Positions 22,031-63,416 are shown, numbered from the stretch's first letter. The stretch: DNA of 64,000 nt from an uncultured Gammaproteobacteria bacterium (GCA_964424775.1 CAYRJZ010000004.1:3262-67261); one strand, 5' to 3'. Numbers and translations: made by a program. Notes: generated from the sequence alone by a model not told the origin.

Positions 22031-22048
22031 AGTATAATGGGTCAACAA

Positions 22049-22119
22049 AGGGGTGTGGTGAAATGGTATCACAGCAGTCTCCAAAACTGCTTTTCACGGT
22101 TCGAGTCCGTGCGCCCCTG
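22049..22119 (+). tRNA. tRNA-Trp (anticodon CCA)
   Basis: Acceptor AGGGGTG/CGCCCCT (with G-U pairs). Anticodon stem GCAGT/ACTGC with loop CTCCAAA. T-arm CACGG-TTCGAGT-CCGTG. Preceded by a TATAAT box. Confidence 0.75.
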
Positions 22120-22166
22120 CACATCTCTCTGAACCCCACATCTTTAGGCTCTGTTACAATTACATC

Positions 22167-37870: not shown

Positions 37871-40210
37871 ATGTCTGAACAACTAAAATCCATTGAAAAT
37901 AGACCTAATCATGCTACTGCTTTTGATGGAGGTGTATTTACTATTGAATACTTCACCTCTGATCCCAAAGGACTTGAAGTCATAACTCGAAATAGTCTTC
38001 CTAGACGTGACAGAGTTCCTGAAGGTGATTCCCAACTTGCCGGAAGAAATGTTCGACCACTCGATATGAGTCAAATTGACAAAGAATTACTCAAAGAAGG
38101 CATGCAATCAGAAGCAGGAAAATTTGGATATAAGGCTGATTTTCCTCGTGAGCTAGTAAGACCAGAGTCAAGCCCTCTTGCAAAACTCCGCAGACAGCAA
38201 CTTAAAGGCGCAACGACAGAAGATCCACTTAAACCATACGTTCCAACAGAAGCTGAACTTCCTTTACTACAACAACGACAGGAATTAATTGAACAAGCCA
38301 AACTCCGCGATACTCTTGGTCTAAAAGTTGGTATTGAAGCAGCCCAGCTTATTGGAAATGCTCTCCATATTGACACTCGGCCGGTCAGTTATCCAGCATA
38401 TGGGAAACTTTCCCGTCCTGGAATGAATTCAGAAGTTGAAGATATTAGTAGCGCAACTGGTGTATGTGCCATTGTGAGAACTGCTGATAATAAATTTCTT
38501 TTGCAATATCGAGCAGAATTAAAAGTAGAAGAAATAGATGGTGTAAAAAAGACTTCTGGAAATGCTTCATATGGCGGAATACCAGGTGCGAGTGTAGCGG
38601 GATTATTGGACGGAAAGTTGGATCATGATAAAACACGAATCGATAGTCAAGGACAAACTGTTCATGACCGAGGCAAACTTCAGCCTGTAACGACACAGAC
38701 AATTCATCAGCGTATTACTGAAGAAGGATCACAAGAAATTGGACTTGGAGAAGGTCAAGTTGAATATAGAATTGTTGGACTTGCCCATGATAAAACCAAA
38801 CCTCACCATGAATTCCTTCTCCTTGGTTCAACAAAACTTACTGCTGAAGATGTATTAAAACAAGCTCGTCAAACAAAAAAAAATCAAAAACTCTCGGAAA
38901 AAGATTTCGAAGAAAAATTTGTCCCAATTGATGCAACAGCAGAAGCAATCGAAATTCTGCTTACAAAAGTGAAATGCCCACTTCCTCCTACCCATTTGGC
39001 AGCCTACGTTGCTGCAGGGTATGCATTGGTCCTTGAACAAGGAGGAAAAGAAGCAGCCGAAGTATGGAAAAAAGAGATGCAAGTAAAAATTGCTGAGAAC
39101 TATACTGATATAAATAAACAAGTTATGACTCACTATCAAAAACATCCAGAACTTCTTGAAAAAAAAGATGATAAGAGACCTCCTCGTAATTCACAAGGAT
39201 ATTCTGCTGATTACACACCATCCGAACAAGGACTTCCGACATTTGATGCAGAAGTTATTCGTACAAGACTTGTCAAACCTGAAATGTCTGAACAAATAGA
39301 AGTAGATAAATTCGAAAAGACATCCAAGCCAGATAAAATATGGATGCTCGATATTGACGGTGTTATTACTAACGCAACTTCTCACGAAATTGAGCAGCCA
39401 ATTATCATTGACACCATACTCAAGTCTCTCCGCAATGGTGAGCCCGTTGCACTCAATACAGGACGCACATTGAATTTCGCTCTCCAACATGTTGTACCAG
39501 AACTTCTGAATGCAGGACTTACAGATGAAGAATTTGCAAATTTTTACGCAGTTGGAGAAAAAGGAGCTACGACACTTTGGTATAAAGATGGAAAATTCCA
39601 TATGTGGCGTGATAAAGATCTTGTCGTCGATGAATCACTCCGGGGCGATCTAGATAAATTTGTTACTACGCTAGTTGGAGATACTATGTTTCCTGGTGAA
39701 CCCAAACCTTCAATGTTATCTCCACAGCTCAAAGAAAAACTTTCTCCTGATCTCGTAGAAAAATTCGATAATGAAGATCATATGAAGGTCTATCTTTATG
39801 CCAAAGCACTTATTGAAAGTAAAGGACTTCAAAATATTTATAGAGTTGATAAGACAAAGATTGCAGTAGATATTGAACACGCTCGTATGGGAAAACAATT
39901 AGGAGCACAAAGGATACTTGATTGGCTCTCAAGACGAAATATGGAGCCCAAGCATTTTATAGGAGTTGGAGATAGTGGCTCTGATGCACAAATGGCAGAT
40001 GAAGTATATAAAGAAATGCAGAAAAGAAGTCGATTTGGGAGACCGACAGTTCAATTTATTTTTGCAGGAAATAGAGAGTCATTCACCAAATATCTCGTCA
40101 GCCAAGACATACCTACTCCTCAATATTCCGTTGTCTATACAGCTCCAGATAGTGAAAAAAAGCCGGTAACAGATAAAAGTTTTGCAGACTATCTTGCTTC
40201 TCAACACTAA
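37871..40210 (+). CDS. Large multidomain hypothetical protein with C-terminal HAD-superfamily phosphatase domain, inserted between rplA and rplJ
   Basis: HAD motif I DIDGVIT (about 39350-39370), motif II LNTGR, motif IV GVGDSGSDAQ (about 39962-39997). A middle region has a weak Nudix-like signature (FLLQYRA...GGIPG...QRITEEGSQEIG). N-terminal about 200 aa unassigned. Confidence 0.6.
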   Translation: MSEQLKSIENRPNHATAFDGGVFTIEYFTSDPKGLEVITRNSLPRRDRVPEGDSQLAGRNVRPLDMSQIDKELLKEGMQSEAGKFGYKADFPRELVRPESSPLAKLRRQQLKGATTEDPLKPYVPTEAELPLLQQRQELIEQAKLRDTLGLKVGIEAAQLIGNALHIDTRPVSYPAYGKLSRPGMNSEVEDISSATGVCAIVRTADNKFLLQYRAELKVEEIDGVKKTSGNASYGGIPGASVAGLLDGKLDHDKTRIDSQGQTVHDRGKLQPVTTQTIHQRITEEGSQEIGLGEGQVEYRIVGLAHDKTKPHHEFLLLGSTKLTAEDVLKQARQTKKNQKLSEKDFEEKFVPIDATAEAIEILLTKVKCPLPPTHLAAYVAAGYALVLEQGGKEAAEVWKKEMQVKIAENYTDINKQVMTHYQKHPELLEKKDDKRPPRNSQGYSADYTPSEQGLPTFDAEVIRTRLVKPEMSEQIEVDKFEKTSKPDKIWMLDIDGVITNATSHEIEQPIIIDTILKSLRNGEPVALNTGRTLNFALQHVVPELLNAGLTDEEFANFYAVGEKGATTLWYKDGKFHMWRDKDLVVDESLRGDLDKFVTTLVGDTMFPGEPKPSMLSPQLKEKLSPDLVEKFDNEDHMKVYLYAKALIESKGLQNIYRVDKTKIAVDIEHARMGKQLGAQRILDWLSRRNMEPKHFIGVGDSGSDAQMADEVYKEMQKRSRFGRPTVQFIFAGNRESFTKYLVSQDIPTPQYSVVYTAPDSEKKPVTDKSFADYLASQH

Positions 40211-40257
40211 AATTTTACTTGTATCCTCCGCTGTAAAGATTAATAATAGATATATTC

Positions 40258-41397
40258 ATGTCCGCTTTTTGCATTTTTAAATGTCTTTCTGGACGAGCAG
40301 ATGCATATGTACTTCTTCTCGTTGGAGCTGCGATGGCAGCTGGAGCATTTATGGTAGGGGGAGTTCTGCCGGAGAATAGAAAATCTGCTAATCAAGCCGC
40401 TACAATTACCCCCTCACCTATTTCTCAAGAAATAGAAGATTCAAATACGTATGAGTCGGATATTTTCCTTCAAGAAAACCTGTCTACTGTCTCTTCTGGA
40501 GAAGCTGATCTTGTAGTCGTAAATTTTTCACTTACCGACCGCAATGGTATCGTTAAAACAACTTTTGATCCCGGTGAACGGATTTATCCAAAAGTTACAT
40601 ACAATAATATTGGATCAGCTCGTATTCTCTCTGAATCAGGATATATCAATAGTCAAATATATGATAATCAACAGACTCCTGCACAGCAAAATCAACAATC
40701 AGATGTCAATGTCTGGATGAGGAATGGTAGATATGGTGTTCAGTACATAAAAACCTATGAGGCTCGACCCGATGGGCTCAACAGCGCTTTTTACAAGGGA
40801 GAAAGGTACTGGATAAGAAATCGTTCTGGGACATTTACCGCCCGAGTGTATTTAAATTATGATCACGGTGGAATAGAAACAAACTTTGAAAATAACCAAC
40901 GTACTGTTACGTATACTATCCGCAATCTCCCTTCACCTACTCCAACAAAAAAACCTACCCCAACGCCAACAAAAACAGCAAGTAATGTAGGAGATGTAAA
41001 TGCTGCACCGAATAGTAATAGCTGTGGTGGAAAATATAGTTTTAACAACCCGATTGGATTGAACTTTGGTGACCCAGCTTGTACTTTCACAAAAGACAAA
41101 CTCTATTCCCTCCTCAAACAACACGATTCACAAAATGCTGATTACTGGTTTTACACTGTTATCCCTTGTGAAAGTCCAGGATACAATGCTAATTTGTATT
41201 ACCGATGCGGACCGGCAGGATGTACACCTGATCCCTCAGGTGCATGGGGACTTTTCCAAATGGGACGAGGAAGAAACGGTCAATATGATCATGGTGATGT
41301 CGCTTGGCCAAGACAAGTTACAAATGCAACAACTTATAGACAAAATATTGGCTGGGGCGGCTGGAGGTACTGGGCGTGTGCTCAATCTCGGTGGTAA
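40258..41397 (+). CDS. Secreted protein with PT-rich linker and C-terminal lysozyme/transglycosylase-like Cys-rich domain (tentative)
   Basis: N-terminal TM/signal. PSPTPTKKPTPTPTKT linker. C-terminal CESPGYN ... GAWGLFQM resembles the catalytic E-S ... G-L-x-Q arrangement of SLT/Rpf-like transglycosylase domains. 8 Cys. Confidence 0.45.
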   Translation: MSAFCIFKCLSGRADAYVLLLVGAAMAAGAFMVGGVLPENRKSANQAATITPSPISQEIEDSNTYESDIFLQENLSTVSSGEADLVVVNFSLTDRNGIVKTTFDPGERIYPKVTYNNIGSARILSESGYINSQIYDNQQTPAQQNQQSDVNVWMRNGRYGVQYIKTYEARPDGLNSAFYKGERYWIRNRSGTFTARVYLNYDHGGIETNFENNQRTVTYTIRNLPSPTPTKKPTPTPTKTASNVGDVNAAPNSNSCGGKYSFNNPIGLNFGDPACTFTKDKLYSLLKQHDSQNADYWFYTVIPCESPGYNANLYYRCGPAGCTPDPSGAWGLFQMGRGRNGQYDHGDVAWPRQVTNATTYRQNIGWGGWRYWACAQSRW

Positions 41398-41930
41398 TTA
41401 TGAATATATTTAATAAAATACGATCATACCTTTTGACACTGAATCCATTTATTTGGATAGGGATTTCACTCCTTCTTCTTGGTGGCATTTTTTTCTTTTC
41501 ATTTCAAACAGATATACCAACTCCTATAACAGAGACAAAGACCATTTCTCCTTCTACTTCTTCTCCTCTTATCTATCCTCGTGACAAGACAGAAAAGTTA
41601 CTAGAAATTGTTGGAAAAAGAAAATCTCTTGACGCAGTAGATCAGGAAATACGAGATGAACTTATATCGTCTCTTGGTTCCGTGTCAGGTATTCTTTATC
41701 AGACAAAAGAATTCAGTATTGAATATGTAAAAGAGCCGGATACTTTTATGGTCGGCATACTCACAACAAATATTATTCCTGCACAACAACAAGCAGTTGA
41801 ATGGCTGAAAGAAAAAGGTATAAGTTATCAGGGCATTTGCCACCTCCCTGTTATTTTCTACCCTTCTTTTCCAAAAGAAGACATTAAAGTTGATTCTCTT
41901 TTATTTAATCCAATTCCTGAGGGATGTTGA
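41376..41930 (+). CDS. Membrane-anchored hypothetical protein
   Basis: N-terminal TM, then a globular domain. Overlaps the upstream gene by 22 nt. Confidence 0.4.
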   Translation: MCSISVVIMNIFNKIRSYLLTLNPFIWIGISLLLLGGIFFFSFQTDIPTPITETKTISPSTSSPLIYPRDKTEKLLEIVGKRKSLDAVDQEIRDELISSLGSVSGILYQTKEFSIEYVKEPDTFMVGILTTNIIPAQQQAVEWLKEKGISYQGICHLPVIFYPSFPKEDIKVDSLLFNPIPEGC

Positions 41931-48058: not shown

Positions 48059-48274
48059 ATGGCAGAACAAAAAATGTCTATCAATGACCTTCCAGATCTT
48101 CTCACAGTTCGTGAAGTAGCTGAAGTACTTCGTGTTTCACCTCTTACTATCAAACGTTGGGGGAAAAGAGGAAAATTACCTGCAATTCGTATTAACAGTC
48201 GTGGTGATAGACGATATAAAAAAGAAGCCGTCCTCTGGCTTCTGGGTATTCAGGAAAAAGGCGGAACGGTTTAG
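48059..48274 (+). CDS. Excisionase/MerR-type helix-turn-helix DNA-binding protein
   Basis: 71 aa. LLTVREVAEVLRVSPLTIKRWGKRGKLPAIRI matches the HTH_17/Xis-like motif. Confidence 0.6.
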   Translation: MAEQKMSINDLPDLLTVREVAEVLRVSPLTIKRWGKRGKLPAIRINSRGDRRYKKEAVLWLLGIQEKGGTV

Positions 48275-48331: not shown

Positions 48332-49072
48332 ATGGTAGAACACCTTTCCAATTCTCTAGTAGTACAAGAAGAAAAAACAATACCAAATGAAACCCTTCCG
48401 ACCCACCCTGATGCAATAGCAATCCTCAGTGGAGGCATTATGAATCGTCCACGCTTTGGCAGCGATTGGTTTGAGCCTACTAACTTTGCCCACGGACTTG
48501 GTGGAAAAGCCCGCGTCATTGCTGCAACAGAACTTGCCAACCAATTCCCCAAAGCCAAATTACTGACTCTCAGCCATGTCAATCCTGAAGTTCCCTCTCA
48601 GGCAGATATCTACGCTTCAACTCTCACCCGCTTCGGTGTCAAACCTGAACGAATAGTGAAAGACTCACACGCACATAATACGTTTTCAGAGCTCGTTGCC
48701 ATTCATAATCAAGCCGTTGAACAAGGGTGGCAACATATTTATGTTGTGAGCAATTCGTATCACAAAAGGGCACCGTATATGATAGAACATCTCAAAGAAA
48801 TCATCGACCACTATCATGTTCATGATCCTCAACTTATAGGAAGTGTACAAAAAACTCTGACATTTATCGCAGCAGAAGATTTACTCCAAGAACGAAATAA
48901 CCGATATAGAAGATTGATTGATCAATGGAAAGAGTCTCCATCTTACGAACGGCTTCTTCAACTGGAAGCAAAAGGCTTGCAAGATCTTCAAAACGGAGTA
49001 TATCATTTCTCTTCCCGAAGCGAAGCTGTAAGGACAGGTATCCTTATAAAAAATGTTCTCACATCCCTTTAA
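48332..49072 (+). CDS. DUF218 (YdcF/SanA-like) domain protein
   Basis: DAIAILSGG ... motif and size typical of DUF218. Confidence 0.55.
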   Translation: MVEHLSNSLVVQEEKTIPNETLPTHPDAIAILSGGIMNRPRFGSDWFEPTNFAHGLGGKARVIAATELANQFPKAKLLTLSHVNPEVPSQADIYASTLTRFGVKPERIVKDSHAHNTFSELVAIHNQAVEQGWQHIYVVSNSYHKRAPYMIEHLKEIIDHYHVHDPQLIGSVQKTLTFIAAEDLLQERNNRYRRLIDQWKESPSYERLLQLEAKGLQDLQNGVYHFSSRSEAVRTGILIKNVLTSL

Positions 49073-49099
49073 CCGCACTTTTCATCACAAATTATTCTG

Positions 49100-49145
49100 A
49101 TGAAAAGAACGCGGCCCAGTCCTCCTGAACTGGGCCGATTCGTCT
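49100..49145 (-). terminator. Terminator unit 1 of high-GC island (hairpin with GGAGG loop plus U-tract on minus strand)
   Basis: Minus strand reads agagacgaatcggcccagttcaggaggactgggccgcgttctttt. Confidence 0.55.
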
Positions 49146-49171
49146 CTGTTTGGAATTTGATGAGACCAAAC

Positions 49172-49444
49172 TCATCCCATCACACTTCGGACCCGGGTAG
49201 TGTATGCATCTACCCGGCCGATGGCAAGACGTACGACTTTACCGTCATACGACTCAACATCCCTTTTAGAGATGAGATAATATCTATACGGCTCAGGTTG
49301 GACCCAAAAGTCCTTTCTGATAACAAGGTACGAATCTGTTGTGCGGGAAACTATCCCGACTCCCCAGAATCGTGCTCCTTTTGGCAGGACTTTTGTCCCT
49401 TTCGGTATCTGAGTGAGGTCAATTTCACATTCCTGACCGAACAT
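49172..49444 (-). CDS. Small hypothetical protein (high-GC island)
   Basis: 90 aa. AAAGGAGA RBS 5 nt upstream of ATG. High GC. Possible small beta-barrel, uncertain. Confidence 0.45.
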   Translation of the reverse strand: MFGQECEIDLTQIPKGTKVLPKGARFWGVGIVSRTTDSYLVIRKDFWVQPEPYRYYLISKRDVESYDGKVVRLAIGRVDAYTTRVRSVMG

Positions 49445-49627
49445 GAGATTCTCCTTTTCCTAAGCCTCCCCCTACACAATGCAGAGAGAATTCGCTAAGA
49501 GACGATCTCAAGACAATAAAACAGATGTCTAAAACGCCATTGTTTTTTATCCATGAAATTGTCTTGAAGTCCCTCTTAATGAATGAAAATAGTATTCCCT
49601 CTTTCATCATTATGCCTATTACATAAT

Positions 49628-49668
49628 GACAAAAGAACGGCCCCGATCCTCCGATCGGGGCATTCGTC
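49628..49668 (-). terminator. Terminator unit 2 of high-GC island (homologous to unit 1, with compensatory stem changes)
   Basis: Minus strand reads agagacgaatgccccgatcggaggatcggggccgttctttt. Confidence 0.55.
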
Positions 49669-49698
49669 TCTCGCCTTTCGGCCAAACTACTCAGGACG

Positions 49699-50433
49699 TC
49701 AGGCGTCCATCTTTCCCTTCGAACCGAACAGATTCAGCAGGTCGCCGAAATTTGGCAAGCTGCCAATCTTTCGGTCTCTCGCCGACGAAAGCACTCCGAT
49801 GATGATCGGACTCGTCTCGTTGCGGAGCAGGTCGTCGATCTTCTGGTTCAGCTGCCCGCGAACGTCCTGTTCTGCCTTCTTGATGGCAGCAGTATACTCC
49901 GCCGTTGCGAACTCAAAGCCGAAACCTCTCCTCTGGTCCAAGACGCTCCTCCGGATCTCATCCAGAACAGACATGACTGCCACACGGATTGAGGTGTCAC
50001 CGACAACCTCAAGATACTTCACGATCGCCTGCCTTGCAGGAAGCTCATACTGATCGATCTCATGAGGGTACGGCATCGTCATGCGTACGATGACGAAGCC
50101 GAATTCCGGCGCCTTCTTCATCACATACGCTGCAAGCTCCTCCTGCGTCAGCACGAGCTGACTCGAAGGAGTGAGAAGCCGCCGCTCACCCGCAAGTTCC
50201 ACCTCATGCCCGTTTATGAGGACGGACGTGACGTACTGATGGAAAGGAGTGGTATTCCGGAACGTAAATCCCGGCACCATTCCCTTTTGTGGGATCACAA
50301 CGAACGGATGACCAGATCCGCAGGCTGGACAGTTGTTCAGCTCCAGGACTGCATCATCCGCGGTCACGACGAGATCGAAGGTGTTCACGCCTGTGAAAGG
50401 CGTAAGAAGTTGATCCTTTTCGGACTCGGTCAT
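49699..50433 (-). CDS. Hypothetical protein, paralogue A with CPxCGxxHP motif (high-GC island)
   Basis: 244 aa. GGGAGA RBS 8 nt upstream. NNCPACGSGHPFVV motif shared with the neighbouring gene. No family recognised. Confidence 0.5.
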   Translation of the reverse strand: MTESEKDQLLTPFTGVNTFDLVVTADDAVLELNNCPACGSGHPFVVIPQKGMVPGFTFRNTTPFHQYVTSVLINGHEVELAGERRLLTPSSQLVLTQEELAAYVMKKAPEFGFVIVRMTMPYPHEIDQYELPARQAIVKYLEVVGDTSIRVAVMSVLDEIRRSVLDQRRGFGFEFATAEYTAAIKKAEQDVRGQLNQKIDDLLRNETSPIIIGVLSSARDRKIGSLPNFGDLLNLFGSKGKMDA

Positions 50434-50775
50434 TGAATTGTTCTCCCTTTCAAAAATGATCGGTCTACTCCCATTTGCTGCAAATGCAGCAGACTTGCCA
50501 TCCGGGCAAAAGTCATCAGAAATGGAAGGGTCTGGCTAACGCCCTTAAAAAGAGACAACTTCCCTCCTTAAGGCCATTAGCCAGTGTGTAGTTTCGTAAA
50601 GAGACGATTTCAGGACAACATCACATCAATTCAGAACGCAAATGTTCTTTCTCTTCATGAATTATCCTGAAATTCCTCTTTACGATTAATTGTTAAAGTA
50701 CACTCTAGAAATATTTTTTTCGAGAGGCCCGGAGAGATTCCCCGGGCCTCCTGTTTTGTCTTGTACGACTTGTAG

Positions 50776-51453
50776 CTAGTTGCCCAGAATCCTGGCCAGG
50801 AAGGAACGTCGCTCCGACCGATGAGGTGGGAGCTCACCCATGTTGTTCGCGATGGTGGTCATGGTCATCACCATCGTGATCTCGAAATCCTCGCCGAAAG
50901 GAACTTCGGCAAGAGCTTCTTCGTAGGCTTCCTCGCTCATGTAGCCGAGGTTGATCTGAAGTGGTCCCCTTGAGACCAACTCTTCGATCGCCTGGTCGGC
51001 TCCCTCGTCGGGGGACTGATGGCCGAGTGCGCGGTAGAGCTCTGCGAGAGCACTCCCGGCATTCATCTGAATTTCCGCGAACTCCTCGCTCTCGACCGGA
51101 TGAAGGACCACGGTTATGGGTCCAGCAAAAGGCAGCTCCCCGTCGGAGGGGCCAAGGTCTGCCGGAGAGACCTCTACGACCTCACCGGGTTCGACGATCC
51201 GCTCTGGCTCTCCCTCGAGATCTGCAGGGAGATCGTAGTGATACACGCTGATTGTAGCGCGCACACTGAGCGGATTTTGAACGAGGAGCGTGGGAACTTC
51301 ACCTGTCACGTAGACAGGATGATCCCCACACCTCGGACAGACAACTGCAGGAATTTCCTGACGATCAGGACCGAGCACCTGGATCCCATACGTGGGACCT
51401 TCGTATGCTCGACGCTCATCGCCTTCGGTCTGGGACATTTCCTCGTCGGTCAT
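50776..51453 (-). CDS. Hypothetical acidic protein, paralogue B with CPxCGxHP motif (high-GC island)
   Basis: 225 aa from ATG 51453 (GGAGG RBS upstream); the ORF opens at 51528. VVCPRCGDHPVYV motif. Very acidic. Confidence 0.5.
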   Translation of the reverse strand: MTDEEMSQTEGDERRAYEGPTYGIQVLGPDRQEIPAVVCPRCGDHPVYVTGEVPTLLVQNPLSVRATISVYHYDLPADLEGEPERIVEPGEVVEVSPADLGPSDGELPFAGPITVVLHPVESEEFAEIQMNAGSALAELYRALGHQSPDEGADQAIEELVSRGPLQINLGYMSEEAYEEALAEVPFGEDFEITMVMTMTTIANNMGELPPHRSERRSFLARILGN

Positions 51454-51722
51454 TTTCTTCCTCCGAAACGAAAAAACGAGAGAATCACACAGCGTGACTC
51501 TCCACCGATCTTCACCAGCTCTTTCCAAGCATGGCTTATAACCGGCTTTCTAGACACAATTATGTCCAGAAAACCAGCTATAAGCACTTATAATCTAGTC
51601 GTTATTCCTTATTGAGAAAAAATAAATTCGCTTTTGAAGAATTAGCTTTCACTAATAAGGATTTTTAATGAGCAAAACGATTAAAATTATACTCTTCGAG
51701 GCTAGGAAAGTCAACTATAGGA

Positions 51723-52610
51723 CTAAGAATGAGTGTGATACTCTGCTCTGTGATTTTCTTTGATCTTTTTATAATCAGGATCCTGGAAGTGGTCTTTCAG
51801 AAATGCCATCGTCTCTTTCGGTGGCTGAGTATTAACGAATACGCCAGTCCCCACCTCAAACCCTCCTGTTGTTTTCTCCCGCGGAATAAGCCGGATATAC
51901 CAGTCCCCTCCTGGGTAAATATAGAAGTTATATGGGAATTCATCACCATGTCGTGCACTCATTATTTTTATGAGTTTGGAAAAAATACCAGCAAAATCAT
52001 GGATCTCATCATCTGTTATTTCGCCAAAGAGACGTCCATGTCGTTTTGGTGCTATCCACACCTCATCCGGCCATGAAGAGTACTGAGGACAAAAAATTGA
52101 GAAATGGGAAGTCTGCACTCCTTTTTCATCATCATGTGCAACACTTTGAAGTCGTGGGATCTCCAGAAGGACTTTCTCCGGCACAACTGCTATCTGTGTA
52201 TGTGAATGCGGAATACTCTCCCCTGCTTTTGGGCCGTGATTGTGGAAAATATAGACCTGACCTTTGTGGGCATGTTCATTATATCGCTGCCTATAAACCT
52301 GAAAAATTAGCTCAATTTGTTCAAGTGAAAAAGCATCAAATGAGGTATGGTGATCAGGAGTATTGAGAACAAGCTCATGATGAGTGGTAAAGGGAAATTT
52401 GTTCGGAATAACCCGGACTTGCCAATGCATATCTCCTTTCTCTCCTCCTATCCGATAATATTCTTCCTCCCGGCTTTCCCGTCCGGGACAAAAAGGACAT
52501 GCTGGCTCTGTTCCATTGGCTACATCTGGTCTTTTTGCTCGCCTTGGAGCAGATATTACCCATTTTTTCGAAATTGGATTTTGAAGGAAAGAAAAGGACT
52601 TATCACTCAT
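51723..52610 (-). CDS. galT: Galactose-1-phosphate uridylyltransferase family (HIT-like nucleotidyltransferase)
   Basis: SAPRRAKRP, zinc-site ACPFCPG and active-site FHNHGPKAGESIPHSHTQI align with GalT's SPHRAKRP / C-x-x-C / HPHGQ motifs. Confidence 0.7.
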   Translation of the reverse strand: MSDKSFSFLQNPISKKWVISAPRRAKRPDVANGTEPACPFCPGRESREEEYYRIGGEKGDMHWQVRVIPNKFPFTTHHELVLNTPDHHTSFDAFSLEQIELIFQVYRQRYNEHAHKGQVYIFHNHGPKAGESIPHSHTQIAVVPEKVLLEIPRLQSVAHDDEKGVQTSHFSIFCPQYSSWPDEVWIAPKRHGRLFGEITDDEIHDFAGIFSKLIKIMSARHGDEFPYNFYIYPGGDWYIRLIPREKTTGGFEVGTGVFVNTQPPKETMAFLKDHFQDPDYKKIKENHRAEYHTHS

Positions 52611-55451: not shown

Positions 55452-56263
55452 AATTTTAGTTTCTTCAAAAAGTCAGGGTCGCGAACATTTGACTCTCCTG
55501 CTTCATTCCCAGCAATTTCTTTTTTCCCAGTAAAATCCTTAAATTTGTTCTTGTCATTTGGTGTGTACTCCTCAACAACAAGTCCATCAACCATATGAAA
55601 AATCTTAGTTGCATATTTCAGATACTCCAGATCATGAGTAACCATAATAATTGTCTTCCCTTCTTCAACAAGAGAAGTAAAAGTCTGAATGAGTTCTTTA
55701 CCAGAAACAGTATCAAGATTTCCTGTCGGCTCATCAGCAACGATTATAACCGGATCTGTCATCATCGCACGGGCAAGACTAATTTTCTGCTGTTGTCCTG
55801 AAGAAAGCTCTGTTGGAGTATATTCTGCCCATTGAGCGAGTCCAACTTTTTCAAGTGATGCCATAGCTTTTTTATGAATCTCCTCAGTTTCTTTATCCAG
55901 AAGATGGAGAGGAAAGGTAATATTGTCAAAAACATTAAAAGACCCTACCCACAATGCCTGCTGATAAATCATACCGACTTTATGTCGTCTAAATAGTGCA
56001 CGCTCATCATCAGTCATTCCATAGAAATCCTGTCCCTCAACCATGACTTTTCCTGATGTTGGCGGCTCAAGGCCTAACAGTGTGTGCAACATCGTTGATT
56101 TACCACATCCTGAAGGACCAAAAATAATCACAAATTCACCCGTTTTAATAGTAATGTTAATCCCTTTCAATACTTCAACAGGTCCAGTCCCAACCGTAAA
56201 GGACTTTCTTAAATCTTTTGTCTCAATGAGTACTCTTTTTTCAGTTGTCATATTAATTTGCAA
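55448..56263 (-). CDS. ABC transporter ATP-binding protein (MacB/LolD-type)
   Basis: Walker A GPSGCGKST, signature LSGGQQQKISLARAM, Walker B IIVADEPTGNLD. Confidence 0.9.
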   Translation of the reverse strand: MQINMTTEKRVLIETKDLRKSFTVGTGPVEVLKGINITIKTGEFVIIFGPSGCGKSTMLHTLLGLEPPTSGKVMVEGQDFYGMTDDERALFRRHKVGMIYQQALWVGSFNVFDNITFPLHLLDKETEEIHKKAMASLEKVGLAQWAEYTPTELSSGQQQKISLARAMMTDPVIIVADEPTGNLDTVSGKELIQTFTSLVEEGKTIIMVTHDLEYLKYATKIFHMVDGLVVEEYTPNDKNKFKDFTGKKEIAGNEAGESNVRDPDFLKKLKL

Positions 56264-59200
56264 ATGGCGCTAAGAATCCAAATGTCCTCGCCAGATTCTC
56301 AATAACTAAATTAAGAGCTGCTTTTGTTGATTTAGGAGTAATGACTACCGTGTCAAAAGATTGTCCACGATTATTACCTTTATCTTTAGAAATTGCTTGA
56401 AGATGATATATTTTTGAAGGTGCAAGCCCTGTTATTGTTACGATGTGATTGGTAGTGAGGGTCGTATCTTCCTGTGTGGTTTGCGAATAATTTGTTCCGG
56501 TTCCTTCTCCATACTGAACTTGCGTTGTTGCAGGTTCATCTGTATCCCAACTTACTACTACCTGAGCACGCGCCTGGTCTCCTACACCAACAATTGTACT
56601 CTCAACATTCATATTTATAATTTCAGGTGAACGAAGATCAACAGCTGTTTTAAGTGTTTGGGCTGGATAAACTGCTTCATTCCCAGCTGCATCTTTTCCT
56701 TTCATGATAATTGTATAATCAGTATCATCACGAAGGTCTTTTAAGAGAACATCATGATTTCTCTTTAAGGCGAGATTTATTTGATCTTTTGCACCTGTTG
56801 AATCATTTGTTGGATAATAGGTAACTATTGTTGAAATCGGTGCATTAGTGTTCCACAGAAGTCTCACTGTTGCAGTTGCAAGGCCAGCAATTTGTTGAAT
56901 TCTCACATTGCCAATCTTTGGAACTGGAAGCGTCTGGAAAGTATAGTCATCACCAGCAAAAGTATTACCATCTTCATCCTCAGCTACAATTTGGAAATGA
57001 TAGAGTGTTCCCTCGGTCAAATCATCAATAACGACATTATGATCTGCTTCGTCTTTTCCAACAGAGACAACTTCTGTGCCTCCATATGAAAGCGTCTTCC
57101 CATACTTAATCGTTATTTTATTTGCACTCTTTGAAGTAAAACCAATGTATGCCGAATAGAGACTGATATTTGTTGCCTTTACTCCTGAGATAAATGGTGC
57201 CGGATCTGTTGTAAAGGTGTATTCTTTTGATTCTCCCTTGTTCCCGTCTTCATCAGTCCATATAGCTTTGTAATAATACGTTGCCCCTGGTGCTAAATTC
57301 AAAAGTTTGATTGAGTGAGCAGCTACCTGTTCTGATGATCCAACCTCTGTATCGTAACTACCTGATTTTGTTCCGTATTTCACAAATGTATTACTCGTTC
57401 GATCTGTGGACCAAGTAATTGTTGCTGTCTTTGTCTTCACAGTTGCAGAGGGACTTGCTGTAAGGCCAGGAGCTGCTTCCCATTTTCCATCTGGGTACAT
57501 AGTGACAGTACTTGAAGCAGCAGAACAATTATTCGTGCTATCACACGCTTTCACACAGTAATAATGATCTACCTGATCAATATCTGTATCTACATAGGAT
57601 TTTCCAGTTGTAGATGCTTTATAGGAAAAATCACTAAAGTTCGTAGTACATGAAGCTTCTGGGACAGTTGAGCTATATACTTTGTATGTTGAAACACCTG
57701 ACCCTGACGACTCCGGAGCTTCCCATGACAGGGCTAATTTCCAACTTGAAAGAGATTTAACAGAGATATCAGCAATGTCTAATTTTGTTGGCACTCCAGG
57801 TGCTGATGTGTCAGCAGTAAAGGTCACAGAGGCGTAATTATGATAATCAATGTTTCCTGCTTCATCTTTTGCAACAACATACATGATATTTGCACCAGGA
57901 AGTGTGGCATATGCATCTGTTGCTAAGTTCGTTGTTGAAAGTCCAACAACATTCACATTTTGGGATGTTGGAAGAGCATTTATAGAATAGTAATAACGAA
58001 GTGATGATTGCGCTCCAAAATAGACAGCTGGCGGATCCCAGGAGAATGAAAATTGGTTGACAGTATTACTACTTGGACTTACTTCCAAATTCTGTGGTGC
58101 ACTCGGTGCAGTTGCACTATAATAATATGAAACGCTGGAATATGTTGACGGTTTGTTCCCAGCTGTGTCTTCTGATCTCACATAGAAAGTGCTCGCTCCA
58201 GTTCCTCCTGCTAATACCCCACTGATAGATGCAACATTTACTCCACATGTTTCAGCTCCAGCAAGAGCAGTCTTATAACAATAACTTGCAACTCCAGAAG
58301 ATGCATCACTTGCACCACTCCAAGCAAAGGCAAAACTATTAACAGCAGTGTATCCCGAAGGATCTGCTGTCACTGTTGTTGGGTTTTCAGGCGCAACGTT
58401 ATCAAATTTATAAGTAAATGCTGCCCAGTTAGAGACGGAGGTATTCCCCGCATCATCAACCGTTTTGATGCGTAAATAGTAGGAATTTCCTGAAGTAAGA
58501 TCTGAAGCAGTGAAGTTTGTTGTTGTTTGGAGCGTTCCAGACGTAGATGCATCCGCATTCTGATCAGTCCCGAAATAGACATAGTAGCCTGTTATTCCAG
58601 ATCCTGCAGTACCATCTGTTGCTCCACCTGTTGCTTCAGCTGCTGGCCATACAAAATATGGAGCAGAGTAGTTATACCAGGTATTAGTCGTGAGCGACGC
58701 AGCTTGAGTTGCTGTCGAGTATACTGAAAGAACTGATGGATTAACTGGTAAAGATGTGTCTGAGTAATACTTGACTGCATAATCCTGAACAACACCTGAA
58801 TAAATTCCATCTGATGAGGTAAATTCAAATTGAACTTGAATGTACTGATTGCCAGGTGAATTTATCTTGTATTCATAATTGGAGCCATTTTGCTTTACCT
58901 CACTCGCCTGTGCCCATGAACTCCAAGTACTATTATCAGCTGATGTTCTTGTCTTCACCCCAAGAGTAGCATTGGTAGCGGAAGTATAAGTAACGCTTAT
59001 ATTAGAGAATTTATACACGCCTCCCAAATCAATTGAGGGAGTTATAAAATTACCTGTCTCTTCAAAAGATGATGAGTCGGTTTGGAACACATAACTATAG
59101 AGCCCATTATTAAATGTATTTGTCCCTGCCCCAGCAATAACATACATCCGATCAACCCCGTTGCTTGCTGCAGAACCTCCAGCTGTTATATTCGCAGGAG

Positions 59201-62200
59201 CATTGGTAATTGTTGACCATGTATTCGTTGAAATAATGTACTGAAAACAGGTGACCGTGTTTGCACCCCTGCAGGCAAATAACCTATCACTTCCCCCATC
59301 AGCTAGAAATCCATCTGCACCGACAGTATTCCCTGTTGCCAAATCTGCAACTGCTGGATCTGACCATGTATTTGCCGAGATGTCGTATCTATAAAATCCA
59401 AGCTGTGAGTTTCCTCGTAATGCATAGATGTACCCTCCTTTTATAACCATCGATCCTCCTGCTCCAATTGCTGCAGGAGCTACAGTAAGACTACTCCAAC
59501 GGTTTCCATTACTTCCCTGTGTATCGTATCTATAAAATGTTGTTGTATTTCCTCCTCGAAGAAGATAAAGATATCTTGTCCCGTCAAATTTCATTGCAGA
59601 GCCTGCACCAGGCGCTGCGGGAACTGGATCAGTATGGTCTTCATACCAATAGTTATTTGTAATGTCATACACAAAAAAGCGTTGAAGAAGTGAACTTGTG
59701 AGCGCATATACCCGATTATTAACACTATCAAATGCCATGACTGCCCCTGTTGTCATACCATTTGGGATATCTTGAAGGTGTGTGACCGTCCCACTCTGAG
59801 CATTATATTTAATAAAAAGACTATCTACTCCTCCACGTGTAATAAAGTAGTCGTTTCCACTTCCTTTTACTATCTGTGCTCCTGTGGTAAATGTTCGAAG
59901 GTCTGATCCTCTAAAATTAGTTCCAAATAAATTATTATTCGGGATCTGCCAGGATGATTTTGCAATATTATATGTATAAAAATTTTGAGTTCCACCACCT
60001 CTGAGAATATAGAGAATGCCATCAACATTTCGCATTGCTGCAGACGTCGTCAATCCGATTGGTGCATCCGATAGCTCACTCCAAGTTTCTGATCCAATAT
60101 CATACTTATAAAAAGCCGTCTTAGCTCCTGCTGGGATATAGTACACAGCGTTACTTGTTTCATCATACTCAATTTGAGCGCCTTCAGCAGATGCGGCTGC
60201 TGGCAGATTAGGGAGTGAGGTCCATGAGTTGGTTGATATTGTATAGCGAGAAAAACCAGTTCTTCCACCGCCCTGGATGGCAAAAATAGTATCATCATCG
60301 ACAGATGACAAATTACCACCTGCACCAACGACATTATTTATCTGATTTGTCGGTGCACCAAAATCAGTATTTGTTAATGTCTCCCATGTATCTGTTTGGG
60401 TATCATAACGAAGGAAAGTATCATCTCCATTTCCTTTCAGTCCGTATATGTAGCGTGACCCATCATAAATAAGTGATGATCCTGTTGAAAAAGGTTGAGG
60501 AGCATCTGCAGCTGCCCCATCATCCCAGGTATTTGTTGTTGAATCATATCGCCAAAATGATGAAGTATTATTTCCCCGTGCTCCAAAAACATAGCCAGAA
60601 GGACCTGCTGCCAATGCTCCACCTGTTGTAACTGCAGCCGGCGCTACTGCGAGTGTCGTCCAGGTATCAGTTGCGATATCATATTCATAAAAGGTGGTCG
60701 TATTTCCTCCTCTGAATGTATAGAGCGTATCTGAATCTCTATCGTATGCCCAACCAGCGCCACTATTAACACCTGCTGGCGGAATACTTAGCCTATACTC
60801 AGTCCAAAAACCGCTTTTTGATGCTAATTTAATTTCATCATTAGCAACTGAAACATTCGTTGTTGTCCCGCCAGTAAAATCTGCTGTTGATGATTTTACC
60901 GTCTCAGAGACATCTACTCCTGAATAGACATACGTAAATGCTGCCAAAGTACTGCTCATGTTATTTTCTGCATCAACAGTTTTCAAACGGAGATAATAAG
61001 TATTGCCTGATGTAAGTGGGGTTGTAACAGTATAGGTACTCGATGTTTGAAGTGATCCAGATACAGCAGGGTCAGCAGAACTTGACGTTCCAAAATAGAC
61101 ATAATATCCAGCAACTGATGTTTCACTATCACTTGCGCCGCTCCAGGTAAAATAAGGATTTGCATAAGAATAGGTACTTCCAGAATTTAATGTGACACCT
61201 GAAATTGATTGGGAGTGACCTGTCACTGTTGAAGGATTGCTCGGGCTTGCTGTATCTCCTGAATAATTTATTGTTATGTCATGAAGGGTAGGAGTTTGGG
61301 TTTGACCGGTTGAAGACGTAAGAGTTGCTCGAACTTGCAAATATCTTCTTGCCGGAGACTGAATACTTCCACTAGAAAGAGATTGCCATGATGACCAGGA
61401 AGATCTATCCGTACTACTTCTTGTTTGAAATGAAATACTTGTATCAGAAGGAGTTGATGCTGTGGATGTCAACGTACTAAAACTTGAAACATATTCAAGA
61501 TCAAGTGTATCACTCGTCCAGGTACCCGAAGCGGGATAATTAGTACTTCCTATTGCATATGTCTGCCACCACAAACTATTTGCCCCGAAGGTAGAAAAAA
61601 GATTTCCTCCGCCATCGCTAGCAAGGGAAGCTCCATTATATGGCCCTTGGTCATATGCATATAGTGTCGCAATATCTGGAAGTCTTCTCCATTCATTACT
61701 TGAGAGAGTATACTCCCAAAACTCCTTTTTATAATAACCTGCCTGAACATATAACTTCCCATTGTAGTAATTCATATCAGTTCCGTAATAAACAGAAAAT
61801 GGAATATTAGAAAGATAACTCCATGTATCTGTTGCGACCGTATATTTCATTAGTCTTGATGTTCCGTTACCGCTTAAAAAATATATATCTGTTCCGTCAC
61901 TGATCAATCGAGAACCAATTCCAGCTACTGCATCTGATGGAAGGTTCGCAGCCCCTGCATCATCCCAAGTATCACCAGAAATACTATATCTGTAAAATGT
62001 TGATGTATTAAGTCCTCTTGTGATATAGAGATAATTACCTGATCCTGGATAGACAACACTTGACCCTCCCCCAAGTGATGCTGGAGACACTGCTAACGTG
62101 GTAAAACTATTACCTACTGGATCATAACGATAGAATGCAGTGGTACTGCTTCCCCGTGGATAATAGAGATAAGCCCCTGCTGATGCACCTTTTGTATCAT

Positions 62201-63416
62201 CTGCACGAGTTGCAGGAAAAGCTGCTAGTAAACCAGACCAAGTTCCATTTGCCAAATCATATCGATACAAATTAGTTGTTGAATTACCACGAGCATAATA
62301 GAGATATCCTTGATGATTAATGACGTCAGATCCTGTTCCGGGAGTATTAGGTAAATCCGTATTCCCAACAAAAGTATCAGAATCTATATCATACTTCCAA
62401 AACTCCTGTGTGTTATTCCCCCGAAAAACATACAGGTATCCATCTCCTGAATGATAAACAACTCCTACAAAACCAGTTGTTTGAGGGGTATTGGTAAGCG
62501 TGGACCAAGCGTTCGTAGATATTTGATAACGGTAGAAAGAATTTGTTGTTGATCCTCTCAAAACATAAATATAATCTCCGTTGACAGATATGTTGCCATC
62601 ACTATTGAGTGTCGCTGGAGCATTAGCCATTGTTGACCACGAATTGCCTGAAACATCATAGCGATAAAAAGTATTTGTATTTCCTCCACGTGGGGTATAG
62701 AAATACCCACCACTATAAATAAGACTTCCTCCGATACTTATCGTTGCAGGAGTTGAAGATACTGCATTCCATGAATTTGATGAAACAGTGTATTTCCAAA
62801 AATCTGTTGTGCCTGCACCTCGGGTAACAAAAATATTTGTACCATCCGTTCCCACTGATGCTCCTGCATAGACGAGATCTGGGAGATCAGCCAATCTTGT
62901 CCAGGTATTAAGAGAAATAGAGTACTTATAAAATTCTTTCTGATATCCTCCAAATATTGCATAAATATTATCACCGAGAATTTTCATATCACTTCCCTGA
63001 TAGGAATAGTACGGTGCACGAGCTAATTGTTTCCAAGAATTTGTTTGGGGATCATACCTCAGGAAAAGATTATCGCCACTTACTTTGACATATAAATACG
63101 ACCCATCACTGACGACAGATGTTTGGTCTCCGAGCGCAATATGGGGAGTTTTCCAGACTCGTGTATTCCAGCTTCCTGTCGCCTGAAGCCGCAACTCTGC
63201 TGAGCGACTAGAAGCTTCAGTTCCACTAAAATTCCCAGAGTTAAATTGTGTCGTTGAATTGATACTCATTGAGGCTGCAAACGCGGGCTGTAGGGAAAAT
63301 GAAAAAGTTGGAAGAATAATAAAAATACAGAAAAGTACGGCAACAATCTTTCTCATATTAATACTCCTATGAGCAAATTCAGATTCCTGCCTACTGAATA
63401 CGCTATTAATTAACAA
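56253..63416 (-). CDS. Giant secreted surface protein (2387 aa) with kelch-like beta-propeller repeat blocks and FN3 domains
   Basis: Signal peptide MRKIVAVLFCIFIILPTFSFSLQPAFAAS. More than 25 repeats of about 50 aa of the form N/T-x-F/W-Y-R/K-Y-D/S-x-x-x-N/D-x-W-x-x-L (e.g. NTFYRYDVSGNSWSTM, TNLYRYDLANGTWSGL). Interspersed FN3-like modules (GYYVYFGTSSSAD...YYLRLKTVD). Confidence 0.8.
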   Translation of the reverse strand: MLINSVFSRQESEFAHRSINMRKIVAVLFCIFIILPTFSFSLQPAFAASMSINSTTQFNSGNFSGTEASSRSAELRLQATGSWNTRVWKTPHIALGDQTSVVSDGSYLYVKVSGDNLFLRYDPQTNSWKQLARAPYYSYQGSDMKILGDNIYAIFGGYQKEFYKYSISLNTWTRLADLPDLVYAGASVGTDGTNIFVTRGAGTTDFWKYTVSSNSWNAVSSTPATISIGGSLIYSGGYFYTPRGGNTNTFYRYDVSGNSWSTMANAPATLNSDGNISVNGDYIYVLRGSTTNSFYRYQISTNAWSTLTNTPQTTGFVGVVYHSGDGYLYVFRGNNTQEFWKYDIDSDTFVGNTDLPNTPGTGSDVINHQGYLYYARGNSTTNLYRYDLANGTWSGLLAAFPATRADDTKGASAGAYLYYPRGSSTTAFYRYDPVGNSFTTLAVSPASLGGGSSVVYPGSGNYLYITRGLNTSTFYRYSISGDTWDDAGAANLPSDAVAGIGSRLISDGTDIYFLSGNGTSRLMKYTVATDTWSYLSNIPFSVYYGTDMNYYNGKLYVQAGYYKKEFWEYTLSSNEWRRLPDIATLYAYDQGPYNGASLASDGGGNLFSTFGANSLWWQTYAIGSTNYPASGTWTSDTLDLEYVSSFSTLTSTASTPSDTSISFQTRSSTDRSSWSSWQSLSSGSIQSPARRYLQVRATLTSSTGQTQTPTLHDITINYSGDTASPSNPSTVTGHSQSISGVTLNSGSTYSYANPYFTWSGASDSETSVAGYYVYFGTSSSADPAVSGSLQTSSTYTVTTPLTSGNTYYLRLKTVDAENNMSSTLAAFTYVYSGVDVSETVKSSTADFTGGTTTNVSVANDEIKLASKSGFWTEYRLSIPPAGVNSGAGWAYDRDSDTLYTFRGGNTTTFYEYDIATDTWTTLAVAPAAVTTGGALAAGPSGYVFGARGNNTSSFWRYDSTTNTWDDGAAADAPQPFSTGSSLIYDGSRYIYGLKGNGDDTFLRYDTQTDTWETLTNTDFGAPTNQINNVVGAGGNLSSVDDDTIFAIQGGGRTGFSRYTISTNSWTSLPNLPAAASAEGAQIEYDETSNAVYYIPAGAKTAFYKYDIGSETWSELSDAPIGLTTSAAMRNVDGILYILRGGGTQNFYTYNIAKSSWQIPNNNLFGTNFRGSDLRTFTTGAQIVKGSGNDYFITRGGVDSLFIKYNAQSGTVTHLQDIPNGMTTGAVMAFDSVNNRVYALTSSLLQRFFVYDITNNYWYEDHTDPVPAAPGAGSAMKFDGTRYLYLLRGGNTTTFYRYDTQGSNGNRWSSLTVAPAAIGAGGSMVIKGGYIYALRGNSQLGFYRYDISANTWSDPAVADLATGNTVGADGFLADGGSDRLFACRGANTVTCFQYIISTNTWSTITNAPANITAGGSAASNGVDRMYVIAGAGTNTFNNGLYSYVFQTDSSSFEETGNFITPSIDLGGVYKFSNISVTYTSATNATLGVKTRTSADNSTWSSWAQASEVKQNGSNYEYKINSPGNQYIQVQFEFTSSDGIYSGVVQDYAVKYYSDTSLPVNPSVLSVYSTATQAASLTTNTWYNYSAPYFVWPAAEATGGATDGTAGSGITGYYVYFGTDQNADASTSGTLQTTTNFTASDLTSGNSYYLRIKTVDDAGNTSVSNWAAFTYKFDNVAPENPTTVTADPSGYTAVNSFAFAWSGASDASSGVASYCYKTALAGAETCGVNVASISGVLAGGTGASTFYVRSEDTAGNKPSTYSSVSYYYSATAPSAPQNLEVSPSSNTVNQFSFSWDPPAVYFGAQSSLRYYYSINALPTSQNVNVVGLSTTNLATDAYATLPGANIMYVVAKDEAGNIDYHNYASVTFTADTSAPGVPTKLDIADISVKSLSSWKLALSWEAPESSGSGVSTYKVYSSTVPEASCTTNFSDFSYKASTTGKSYVDTDIDQVDHYYCVKACDSTNNCSAASSTVTMYPDGKWEAAPGLTASPSATVKTKTATITWSTDRTSNTFVKYGTKSGSYDTEVGSSEQVAAHSIKLLNLAPGATYYYKAIWTDEDGNKGESKEYTFTTDPAPFISGVKATNISLYSAYIGFTSKSANKITIKYGKTLSYGGTEVVSVGKDEADHNVVIDDLTEGTLYHFQIVAEDEDGNTFAGDDYTFQTLPVPKIGNVRIQQIAGLATATVRLLWNTNAPISTIVTYYPTNDSTGAKDQINLALKRNHDVLLKDLRDDTDYTIIMKGKDAAGNEAVYPAQTLKTAVDLRSPEIINMNVESTIVGVGDQARAQVVVSWDTDEPATTQVQYGEGTGTNYSQTTQEDTTLTTNHIVTITGLAPSKIYHLQAISKDKGNNRGQSFDTVVITPKSTKAALNLVIENLARTFGFLAPFAN

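Follow-up and report, generated by a model that had tools for sequence, protein, structure and literature searches.

The locus described here raises the question of how a group of genes rich in guanine and cytosine (GC) came to lie in a genome rich in adenine and thymine (AT), and what the genes do there. The locus is found at 49-52 kb of a 64,000-nucleotide (nt) stretch of DNA (GCA_964424775.1 CAYRJZ010000004.1:3262-67261; the whole stretch is called the window below), deposited under the name of an uncultured Gammaproteobacteria bacterium. An initial annotation, made from the sequence alone, described a high-GC island with three minus-strand genes, B, A and C, each with its own terminator, preceded by an Xis-like helix-turn-helix (HTH) gene; it also took A and B for a paralogous pair whose products might form a heterodimer around a metal site. 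The explanation favoured here is a variable array of accessory genes, vertically inherited and restricted to a subclade of Candidatus Levybacteria, with translation gated by structured leaders and an architecture like that of rAID arrays (for recombinase-associated acquired interbacterial defence). As a whole it is offered tentatively, with slightly less than an even chance of being right.

Composition, contiguity and age of the array

In 300-nt windows, the flanks have a GC of 0.31-0.44; C and the spacers lie at 0.42-0.50, and within A and B values of 0.55-0.61 are reached. No 1-kb bin of the window, whose mean is about 0.38, exceeds the three that span 49-52 kb (0.48-0.51). Both profiles bear out a high-GC region between AT-rich flanks; the "island" is really two GC-rich gene bodies (55-58% over the whole genes) and a moderately GC-rich third gene, with spacers of ordinary composition. 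GC at third codon positions (GC3) is 0.63 in B, 0.67 in A and an intermediate 0.46 in C; it is 0.25-0.35 in six neighbouring genes.

All three genes are on the minus strand behind ribosome-binding sites, with the positions and sizes first given for them. B (50776-51453) encodes 225 amino acids (aa) from an ATG behind the Shine-Dalgarno (SD) sequence GGAGGAAG; A (49699-50433) encodes 244 aa and also has an SD; C (49172-49444; GC 0.48) encodes a basic 90-aa protein (isoelectric point (pI) 9.6) and has a strong SD and a terminator. The left flank is a galT-like core gene at 51723-52610 (minus strand; DUF4931/GalP_UDP_transf in Pfam). The right anchor is a small HTH_17/MerR gene of the BldC/excisionase type at 48059-48274 (plus strand), a highly conserved core gene which is convergent with the array. 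A DUF218 gene (48332-49072, plus strand) lies between the HTH gene and the array. The spacers are as long as had been reported, measuring 269 nt between the galT-like gene and B, 342 nt between B and A, and 254 nt between A and C.

Sharp GC steps at the gene borders could point to an assembly artefact, in which a contaminant GC-rich fragment was misjoined into the AT-rich contig of a metagenome-assembled genome. Relatives of B (and, in L001, of A) are carried on contigs of two independent Logan assemblies from other samples, L001 and L002. L001 has the galT-like gene (93.5% aa identity), B and A, followed by HTH and NUDIX genes; L002 has the 3' end of the galT-like gene and B without A, followed by DUF218 and HTH genes. 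By blastn, the window and L001 share a colinear stretch of 2979 nt (81% identity), which reaches from the galT-like gene past A up to and including its terminator. The junctions galT-like/leader/B and A-terminator/HTH (or B-terminator/DUF218) are seen again in L001 and L002; in three assemblies, then, the GC-rich segment and its AT-rich flanks form one contiguous sequence, which is not a chimera. GC-rich arrays also occupy the same slot in five GTDB species genomes. The misassembly that the initial annotation had allowed for is consequently of negligible probability.

The five related arrays (L003, L004, L005, L008 and L012) come from genomes whose galT-like protein is 61-71% identical to that of the window. 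In all five, GC-rich sequence follows the galT-like gene, over 1.6-6.4 kb where the HTH end is on the contig; the contig of L004 ends before the HTH gene and the slot length is not bounded there. The open reading frames (ORFs) of these arrays are orphans too and most are non-homologous to A, B and C; ten of them have no Pfam or PHROG match.

With the galT-like protein as anchor, 70 loci are found in GTDB genomes, nearly all in Candidatus Levybacteria/Levyibacteriota or unclassified Patescibacteria, the best match being 71% identical to the window. The window is therefore part of a Levybacteria genome (candidate phyla radiation (CPR), Microgenomates). Seven Joint Genome Institute (JGI) metagenome contigs, found with the HTH anchor, have convergent galT-like and HTH genes only 21-145 nt apart and no island. 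This adjacency is the simplest candidate for the ancestral state, and by comparison with these related CPR contigs the array is an insertion, but apparently an old one. One further locus (L073) has 5 kb between the two genes; it was rejected as the same element, as its slot holds ordinary AT-rich genes without leader motifs, and the element is therefore confined to a subclade. No homologs of the array outside the clade were found in protein clusters, IMG/VR, INPHARED phages or PLSDB plasmids.

The age of the insertion can be read from its coding sequences. Differences between the window and L001 fall at codon positions in the order 3>1>2, with one in-frame indel. By the Nei-Gojobori method, the ratio of nonsynonymous to synonymous divergence (dN/dS) between window and L001 is 0.28 for B (dS 0.84) and 0.32 for A (dS 0.60); it is 0.04 for the galT-like gene (dS 0.92) and 0.05 for the HTH gene (dS 0.38). 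Overall, dN/dS of A and B is 0.22-0.32, and dS reaches 1.9 in comparisons with L002. Since the differences follow a coding pattern and dS of A and B versus L001 (0.6-0.84) is similar to that of the flanks (0.38-0.92), A and B are real genes which have been inherited together with the flanks. The possibility that the GC-rich ORFs are structured RNAs was ruled out by the codon-position pattern, dN/dS below 1, the in-frame indel and the retention of the ORFs in three genomes.

GC3 of B is 0.63, 0.56 and 0.60 in three lineages. Polarised third-position changes in B are balanced (GC>AT 10 and 16, AT>GC 13 and 10), although the counts are small and the sites partly saturated. GC-richness looks maintained, with no sign of decay toward the host's 0.3; since GC3 appears to have been held at about 0.6 over about one substitution per synonymous site, selection or biased gene conversion is indicated rather than leftover foreign composition.

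A recent high-GC island carrying an Xis-like gene would explain the foreign-looking composition and the excisionase-type HTH gene nearby. Compositional deviation and insertion are indeed found; there are no mobility genes, no insertion site at a tRNA or direct repeat, and no donor that could be identified. No integrase, transposase or recombinase occurs among the ORFs at about 38-63 kb (Pfam scans of ORFs of at least 130 aa and immediate neighbours), in agreement with the earlier statement that no integrase was seen. Flank-like dS, steady GC3 and the lack of an integrase within about 10 kb together argue that the array is old, so that the foreign-looking composition and the insertion stand, while a recent acquisition does not.

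The HTH gene also fits this view. Its product does contain an excisionase-type domain (TIGR01764, 36.2 bits against a cut-off of 28.8; HTH_17, 41.4 bits), but its link with the island does not hold: the cluster to which it belongs at 90% identity counts 938 members, from Levybacteria, Daviesbacteria and other Microgenomates, and the gene is found beside the galT-like gene where the island is absent. The 71-aa protein is 96% identical at dS 0.38-0.80 and has over 400 relatives in JGI metagenomes. By these sequence comparisons it is a core BldC/excisionase-type regulator and not an island-borne Xis. Its conservation is exceptional, and its role in this CPR group is probably that of a core regulator of nucleoid or developmental type. 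A compositional island beside an "Xis-like" gene need not be a recent mobile element.

Promoter and leader RNAs

Nothing in the locus is more constrained than the long spacers; the promoter and leaders that they contain are under strong purifying selection. Promoter P1 (51686-51721, minus strand) lies directly after the stop codon of the galT-like gene and consists of CCTATAG and TTGACT-17 nt-TATAAT, an 11/12 match to the sigma-70 consensus. Its motif CCTATAGTTGAY is found in L001-L005 and is visible in L008 and L012, i.e. in seven other arrays.

Three hairpins are found in the leader of B (5' untranslated region; 51454-51685, minus strand): one of 23 bp (51534-51585), a small one, and a terminator-like one of 11 bp (51479-51503). 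The mean column identity of this leader to L001 is 95% (89.6% by blastn), and conserved blocks of it are present in L002. The consensus fold shows G.U to Watson-Crick changes; in this fold the U-tract of the terminator-like hairpin pairs with the GGAGGA/SD sequence GGAGGAAG.

The leader of A (50434-50722, minus strand) is built from block I (about 50661-50699; TTTAACA..GTAAAGAGGAAT), block II (50593-50618; ..AATCGTCTCTTTACGAA), a long hairpin (50530-50586) recognised by covariation and covariance-model matches, and the SD AAAGGGAGAA (50441-50450). The spacer between B and A has a mean column identity of 90% to L001 (84% by blastn); dS of the genes beside these leaders is 0.6-0.9. Blocks I and II of the A leader are both seen again in L005, L008 and L012. 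The leader of C (49445-49630, minus strand) has its own blocks I and II, which are, judging by sequence, paralogous copies of those upstream of A, and lacks the long hairpin; its block II lies at 49497-49516, and the two leaders share a 61-nt direct repeat (70% identity).

Across species, block I has the consensus TTTAACA..(C/T)ATAAAGAG(T/G)WAT and block II, GGATCGTCTCTTTAYGA, lies about 85-95 nt beyond it. The exact 20-mer of block II occurs twice in the window (0.04 expected); block II is also found in L001, L005 (twice), L008 and L012. The long hairpin lies 10-25 nt beyond block II; in L003 and L004 a P1-type promoter precedes it instead. The leaders are 250-340 nt long and are found in at least eight species, ahead of ORFs without detectable homology to one another; in a blastn comparison of L003 with L004, the spacers align and the ORFs do not.

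Near-perfect stems of 20-25 bp are formed on folding of ten excerpts from the leaders (total dG -24 to -51 kcal/mol). In an alignment of nine hairpins the 15 basal pairs are 94% paired, and 11 of the 15 change on both sides (27 cells); none of 500 shuffles reaches the observed level of covariation, and the slid controls are at 17-50%. When 1.42 Mb of Levybacteria/CPR sequence was searched with a covariance model, the only matches were its nine training copies and one more in the slot-1 leader of L004, with scores of 37-51 bits in sense and 19-27 bits in antisense orientation. Because G.U pairs are frequent and the strands are asymmetric, the hairpin belongs to the gene-strand transcript and acts as RNA. 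Rfam gives only sub-threshold miRNA noise at 48-52.5 kb, only tRNAs in the window and nothing in seven related loci; no rRNA leader is found in the window or in six GC-patch loci scanned with Rfam.

Block II is CU-rich and may act on the SD. In minimum free energy folds it pairs with the SD region in 5 of 8 slot-2 leaders, and L008 shows pairing with a pseudo-SD instead. Block II is identical at 9-12 of 14 positions to the universal 3' end of 16S rRNA, GGAUCACCUCCUUA, a consensus which may not be that of the host; in the best-matching copies nearly all mismatches are transitions. The CU-box stretch GGAUCGUCUCUUUA is a candidate mimic of the anti-SD. Other roles were considered. Block II (CGTCTCTTTACGAA) may be a boxA/nut-like element, as may TGCTCATTAAAAA in the B leader. 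For an extracytoplasmic function (ECF)-type or sigma-70 promoter at block II, no conserved -35 is seen at fixed spacing. Leader peptides in the A and C leaders were rejected, as the small upstream ORFs are conserved neither in start codon nor in frame.

The 3' ends of the units differ. The intrinsic terminator of A (49631-49661, minus strand) has a 9-bp stem, a GGAG loop and the tail CGTTCTTTT, and is kept in L001; that of C (49103-49137, minus strand) has an 11-bp stem and a CGTTCTTTT tail. The two have similar GGAG loops and tails and form a direct repeat of each other. B is followed by a GC-rich hairpin (50723-50750, minus strand) without a U-tract, which may be a weak terminator or a 3' stabiliser; as read from the sequences, its stem is retained in L001 and L002 with changes that preserve pairing. 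A terminator for each gene is thus confirmed for A and C, with hairpin and U-tract, but not for B.

The terminators also mark where the array changes. The C unit is entirely missing from L001 and L002, and the indel in L001 is bounded by the similar A and C terminators. Of the DUF218 region, only a remnant of about 190 nt is left in L001 (9696-9887), homologous to the C-terminator region and the 3' end of the DUF218 gene (window 48948-49147); its first part (9696-9765) matches sequence downstream of both terminators. Since the borders of the indel are two similar terminators, units appear to be gained and lost there, with the C unit as example. The DUF218 gene itself is present in L002 (1141-1872) and is the fastest-evolving flank gene (dN 0.53 versus L002).

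Hairpins between diverse, co-oriented orphan ORFs of deviant GC also suggest an integron-like array without an integrase (a cluster of attC sites lacking integrase, CALIN), in which the hairpins would be attC-type sites folded from single-stranded DNA and the ORFs mobile cassettes. ORF content does differ between species at the same slot, and the hairpins keep structure rather than sequence. The attC consensus is RYYYAAC...GTTRRRY; the basal arms GGCTAAT...GTTAGCC resemble it, and the GT is invariant in the 3' arm (GTTAGCC, GTTGGTC or GTCGGTC). No IntI or other recombinase lies within about 10 kb, although a CALIN does not require an IntI. The stems, however, are near-perfect, without extrahelical bases or an unpaired central spacer. 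The sole mapped unit border, that of C, is at terminators, and this unit lacks a hairpin. Whatever ORF is next to it, the hairpin has conserved sequence on either side (blocks I and II, and the SD), unlike in independent cassettes; the distance from a hairpin to the start codon that follows is 24-100 nt or more, and that from the preceding stop codon about 170-190 nt. A CALIN is for these reasons improbable.

The same leaders could also derive from a domesticated phage or other mobile element, whose early region would supply a strong promoter, RNase III-type hairpins, a nut-like boxA and an acidic anti-restriction-like protein. P1 is a consensus promoter and the intergenic hairpins are long. 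Block II (CGTCTCTTTACGAA) and a part of the B leader (TGCTCATTAAAAA) are candidates for sequences like the rrn/lambda boxA, (T/C)GCTCTTTAACAA / TGCTCTTTAACAA. B is very acidic, like DNA-mimic proteins, and all ORFs are orphans, as is typical of phage early genes. Against such a remnant, neither relatives of A or B nor the block II motif are found in IMG/VR, no DNA match is given by INPHARED phages or PLSDB plasmids, and there are no significant PHROG matches; structural, replication and integration genes are absent. The array also occupies the same chromosomal slot in at least eight species and has diverged as much as its flanks. A phage or mobile-element origin of this kind is accordingly given a low probability.

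Array proteins and neighbouring genes

None of A, B and C gives a match above threshold in Pfam, PHROGs, PADLOC or NCBIfam, as expected from the initial annotation, which recognised no family. Among 5.8 billion protein clusters, A has one relative (69%, L001) and B two (61% and 49%). An exhaustive HMMER search of 1.84 billion representatives with the B profile added only a marginal match to a TIG/IPT-like repeat protein (E 8e-4). C has zero homologues among the 5.8 billion clusters; its exact sequence is absent from them and the gene is uncalled in the source annotation. A and B occur together in L001, but L002 has B alone and C is absent from both. No signal peptide, transmembrane or hydrophobic segment is found in A, B or C.

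B has a pI of 4.2 and a net charge of -30, with zero Lys in 225 residues (R 5.3%, D+E 18.7%). The lack of Lys is peculiar to this genome; the L001 and L002 orthologs have a few. More distant relatives are found in L003, where four tandem B-like paralogs (14106-17127, plus strand) are 22-24% identical to B; jackhmmer recovers two of the four and the alignment accommodates all four. These paralogs have a GC of 0.41-0.47, near the genome background, so that GC-richness is not intrinsic to the B family. Small conserved orphan ORFs of 57-67 aa are also present in related arrays (L003 13210-13928, L004 13175-13950 and L008 about 4045-4390); their families are MSGQSYH..IRLDRIAEGRMLAAANAAAS, AFASLVETFR..YxxTxW (also in L008) and an acidic-tailed ..QPDRHDxxDFG.

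A common N-terminal domain of the PapD/MSP-like beta-sandwich type is probable for A and B. B is predicted to form a sandwich of 7-8 strands (about residues 20-120) followed by a helical/beta C-terminal part, and the best structural neighbours of its N-terminal domain are pilus chaperones and MSP/VAP domains. A has a weak Pfam PapD_C match; it has a beta-rich N-terminal domain, a helical C-terminal half and a conserved tail, SLPNFGxLLxLFGxKGKMDA. Compared alone, A and B are not significantly similar (BLASTP E 0.017 over 26 residues; hhalign probability 1.5%). When A is compared with the eight-member B family, hhalign gives E 2.3e-4 (probability 44%) over 73 columns, aligning A 26-103 with B 30-103. 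The annotated paralogous pair is thus upheld at the level of N-terminal domains, which are probably homologous and make A and B distant paralogs, although not by single-sequence comparison. Neither C nor the 164-aa slot-2 ORF of L003/L004 is related to A or B.

The metal site is a different matter. A and B each contain exactly two Cys, which form the CPAC/CPRC motif, so that each protein has one CPxCG..HP motif and one CxxC, as annotated. This count, together with the probable homology of the N-terminal domains, led to the model of an A/B heterodimer in which the two single CxxC motifs complete one 4-Cys metal site. In relatives of B, however, the motif is not kept: it reads CPTCRDHA in L001 and E-C-W-C-R-T-H-S in L002, L003:16504 keeps CPFC, and three of the four L003 paralogs have no Cys at this position. 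Of the eight B-family members, three have an intact CxxC and two have CWC instead. The four Cys/His ligands that define a zinc ribbon or knuckle are not conserved family-wide; C-x2-C-x2/3-H...H is conserved only among the closest orthologs of each protein. The candidate ligands would be C39, C42, H45 and H72 in B and C35, C38, H42 and H65 in A. If metal is bound, an intermolecular site is no more plausible than an intramolecular C-x2-C-x2/3-H...H site, the His of which are conserved in the close orthologs of each protein. Loss of CxxC in B relatives and the occurrence of B without A leave the heterodimeric 4-Cys site unsupported, and its combination with a recent Xis-bearing island is very improbable.

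A and B take amino-acid changes about seven times faster than the flanks. The other genes at about 38-63 kb are rplJ, rplL and genes for FabH-like, NUDIX, DUF218 and rhodanese proteins, an ABC transporter and a giant Kelch/FN3 protein. The last of these (56253-63416, minus strand) has 2387 aa, with many Kelch repeats, FN3 domains and a purple-acid-phosphatase N-domain; it lies downstream of an ABC transporter/FtsX-like pair and is probably a cell-surface protein. Directly upstream of rplJ/rplL, at 37871-41930 (plus strand), are three large ORFs (779, 379 and 184 aa) without a Pfam match. The same three ORFs are found in syntenic L001 (13906-17964) between rplA and rplJ, as an orphan insertion in the usually compact rplKAJL cluster. 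The tRNAs of the window are found only at 21.4-22.1 kb: four genes (Thr-TGT, Tyr-GTA, Thr-GGT and Trp-CCA; 21438-22120, plus strand) lie far from the array and are not its insertion site.

Proposed function and comparison with known systems

In the favoured explanation, an array of co-oriented units would have been inserted between the convergent core genes for the galT-like protein and the BldC/Xis-type HTH protein. Each unit would comprise a structured leader, a GC-rich orphan ORF and a hairpin or terminator, with transcription from P1 and possibly from further starts. The SD of each leader may pair with a CU-rich box lying upstream of it, which is block II or, in the leader of B, the U-tract; the ribosome-binding site would then be sequestered in the default state. 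The long hairpin could be where RNase III-type processing or stabilisation takes place, or a protein could bind to it and so release translation. A and B would be cytosolic PapD/MSP-like beta-sandwich binding modules which act independently of each other. Most likely their role would lie in a conflict setting, immunity-like or anti-effector, where they would bind partners and neutralise them, as happens in orphan-immunity arrays.

A number of observations weigh against this explanation. Searches of Pfam, PHROGs, PADLOC and NCBIfam link no array protein to a known family of immunity, defence or toxin proteins; the functional class is therefore inferred from architecture and evolutionary pattern only. 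There are only two to three orthologs per protein, and C has no comparative support as a coding gene. The fold matches are to generic Ig-like sandwiches with low Z, and the AlphaFold2 model of A is unusable (predicted local distance difference test (pLDDT) 42). A dN/dS of 0.3 indicates relaxed purifying selection overall, and positive selection is not demonstrated. The promoter scan identified no promoter for A or C. The duplex of block II and SD beats shuffled CU-rich controls at 1% only in L001; WIN_A and WIN_C are marginal, at 7-9%.

A bolder form of the explanation, rather unlikely when its parts are taken together, treats the locus as a new, recombinase-independent kind of "expression slot" array in CPR bacteria. 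The leader RNA, of a type not described before, with its CU box like the 16S 3' end and its covarying hairpin of 20-25 bp, would be near-invariant, while the cargo would have been exchanged or have diverged beyond recognition and its GC3 would be actively held at twice that of the genome. In such a conflict or immunity-like locus the conserved selectable unit would be the RNA scaffold and not the proteins.

CPR bacteria have tiny genomes, with very few described regulatory RNAs or variable accessory loci. The leader hairpin is a candidate for a new family of cis-regulatory RNA, conserved ahead of non-homologous genes, and A and B are new orphan protein families with a predicted PapD/MSP-like fold and rapid evolution. 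If the locus is immunity-like or serves interaction with a host, it would give a handle on how episymbiotic CPR bacteria cope with antagonists, and the leader would provide a portable expression signal for CPR genetics. The tiny phylogenetic range limits the reach of these findings.

Several known systems can be compared with the array. The predicted N-terminal domain of B, and probably that of A, would be an Ig-like beta-sandwich as in the PapD-like/MSP superfamily. Long near-perfect intergenic hairpins in a multi-gene transcript recall RNase III-processed or SD-sequestering leaders such as those of T7 early mRNAs and lambda N. A CU-rich box able to pair with the SD, and a terminator-like hairpin just upstream of the SD of B, recall anti-SD expression platforms. 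Unlike these leaders, to which it has no sequence relationship, the array leader is reused ahead of non-homologous genes across species.

The likeness to integrons and CALINs lies in diverse orphan ORFs separated by hairpins that keep structure over sequence, with basal arms loosely like GTTRRRY. It ends at the missing IntI, the perfect stems without extrahelical bases and the unit border at terminators; in addition, a conserved promoter, leader and SD flank the hairpins, and G.U pairs and strand asymmetry fit an mRNA element.

The closest architecture is that of the rAID arrays, orphan-immunity gene arrays of Bacteroidales, which consist of co-oriented short genes (about 100-300 codons) with conserved intergenic motifs and deviant GC (bioRxiv 10.1101/2025.05.03.651265). 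The array shares these features, as well as divergent tandem paralogs, rapid protein evolution and a chromosomal site. In contrast to rAID arrays, it has no tyrosine recombinase at its head, its GC deviates upward rather than downward, and A, B and C contain no recognisable immunity domain (e.g. SUKH) by Pfam, NCBIfam or PADLOC. The hosts differ too, the array being found in a CPR bacterium which is thought to lack an outer membrane and for which attack by a type VI secretion system (T6SS) is not established. Finally, the intergenic element of the array is a covarying RNA hairpin, which sets it apart from rAID arrays.

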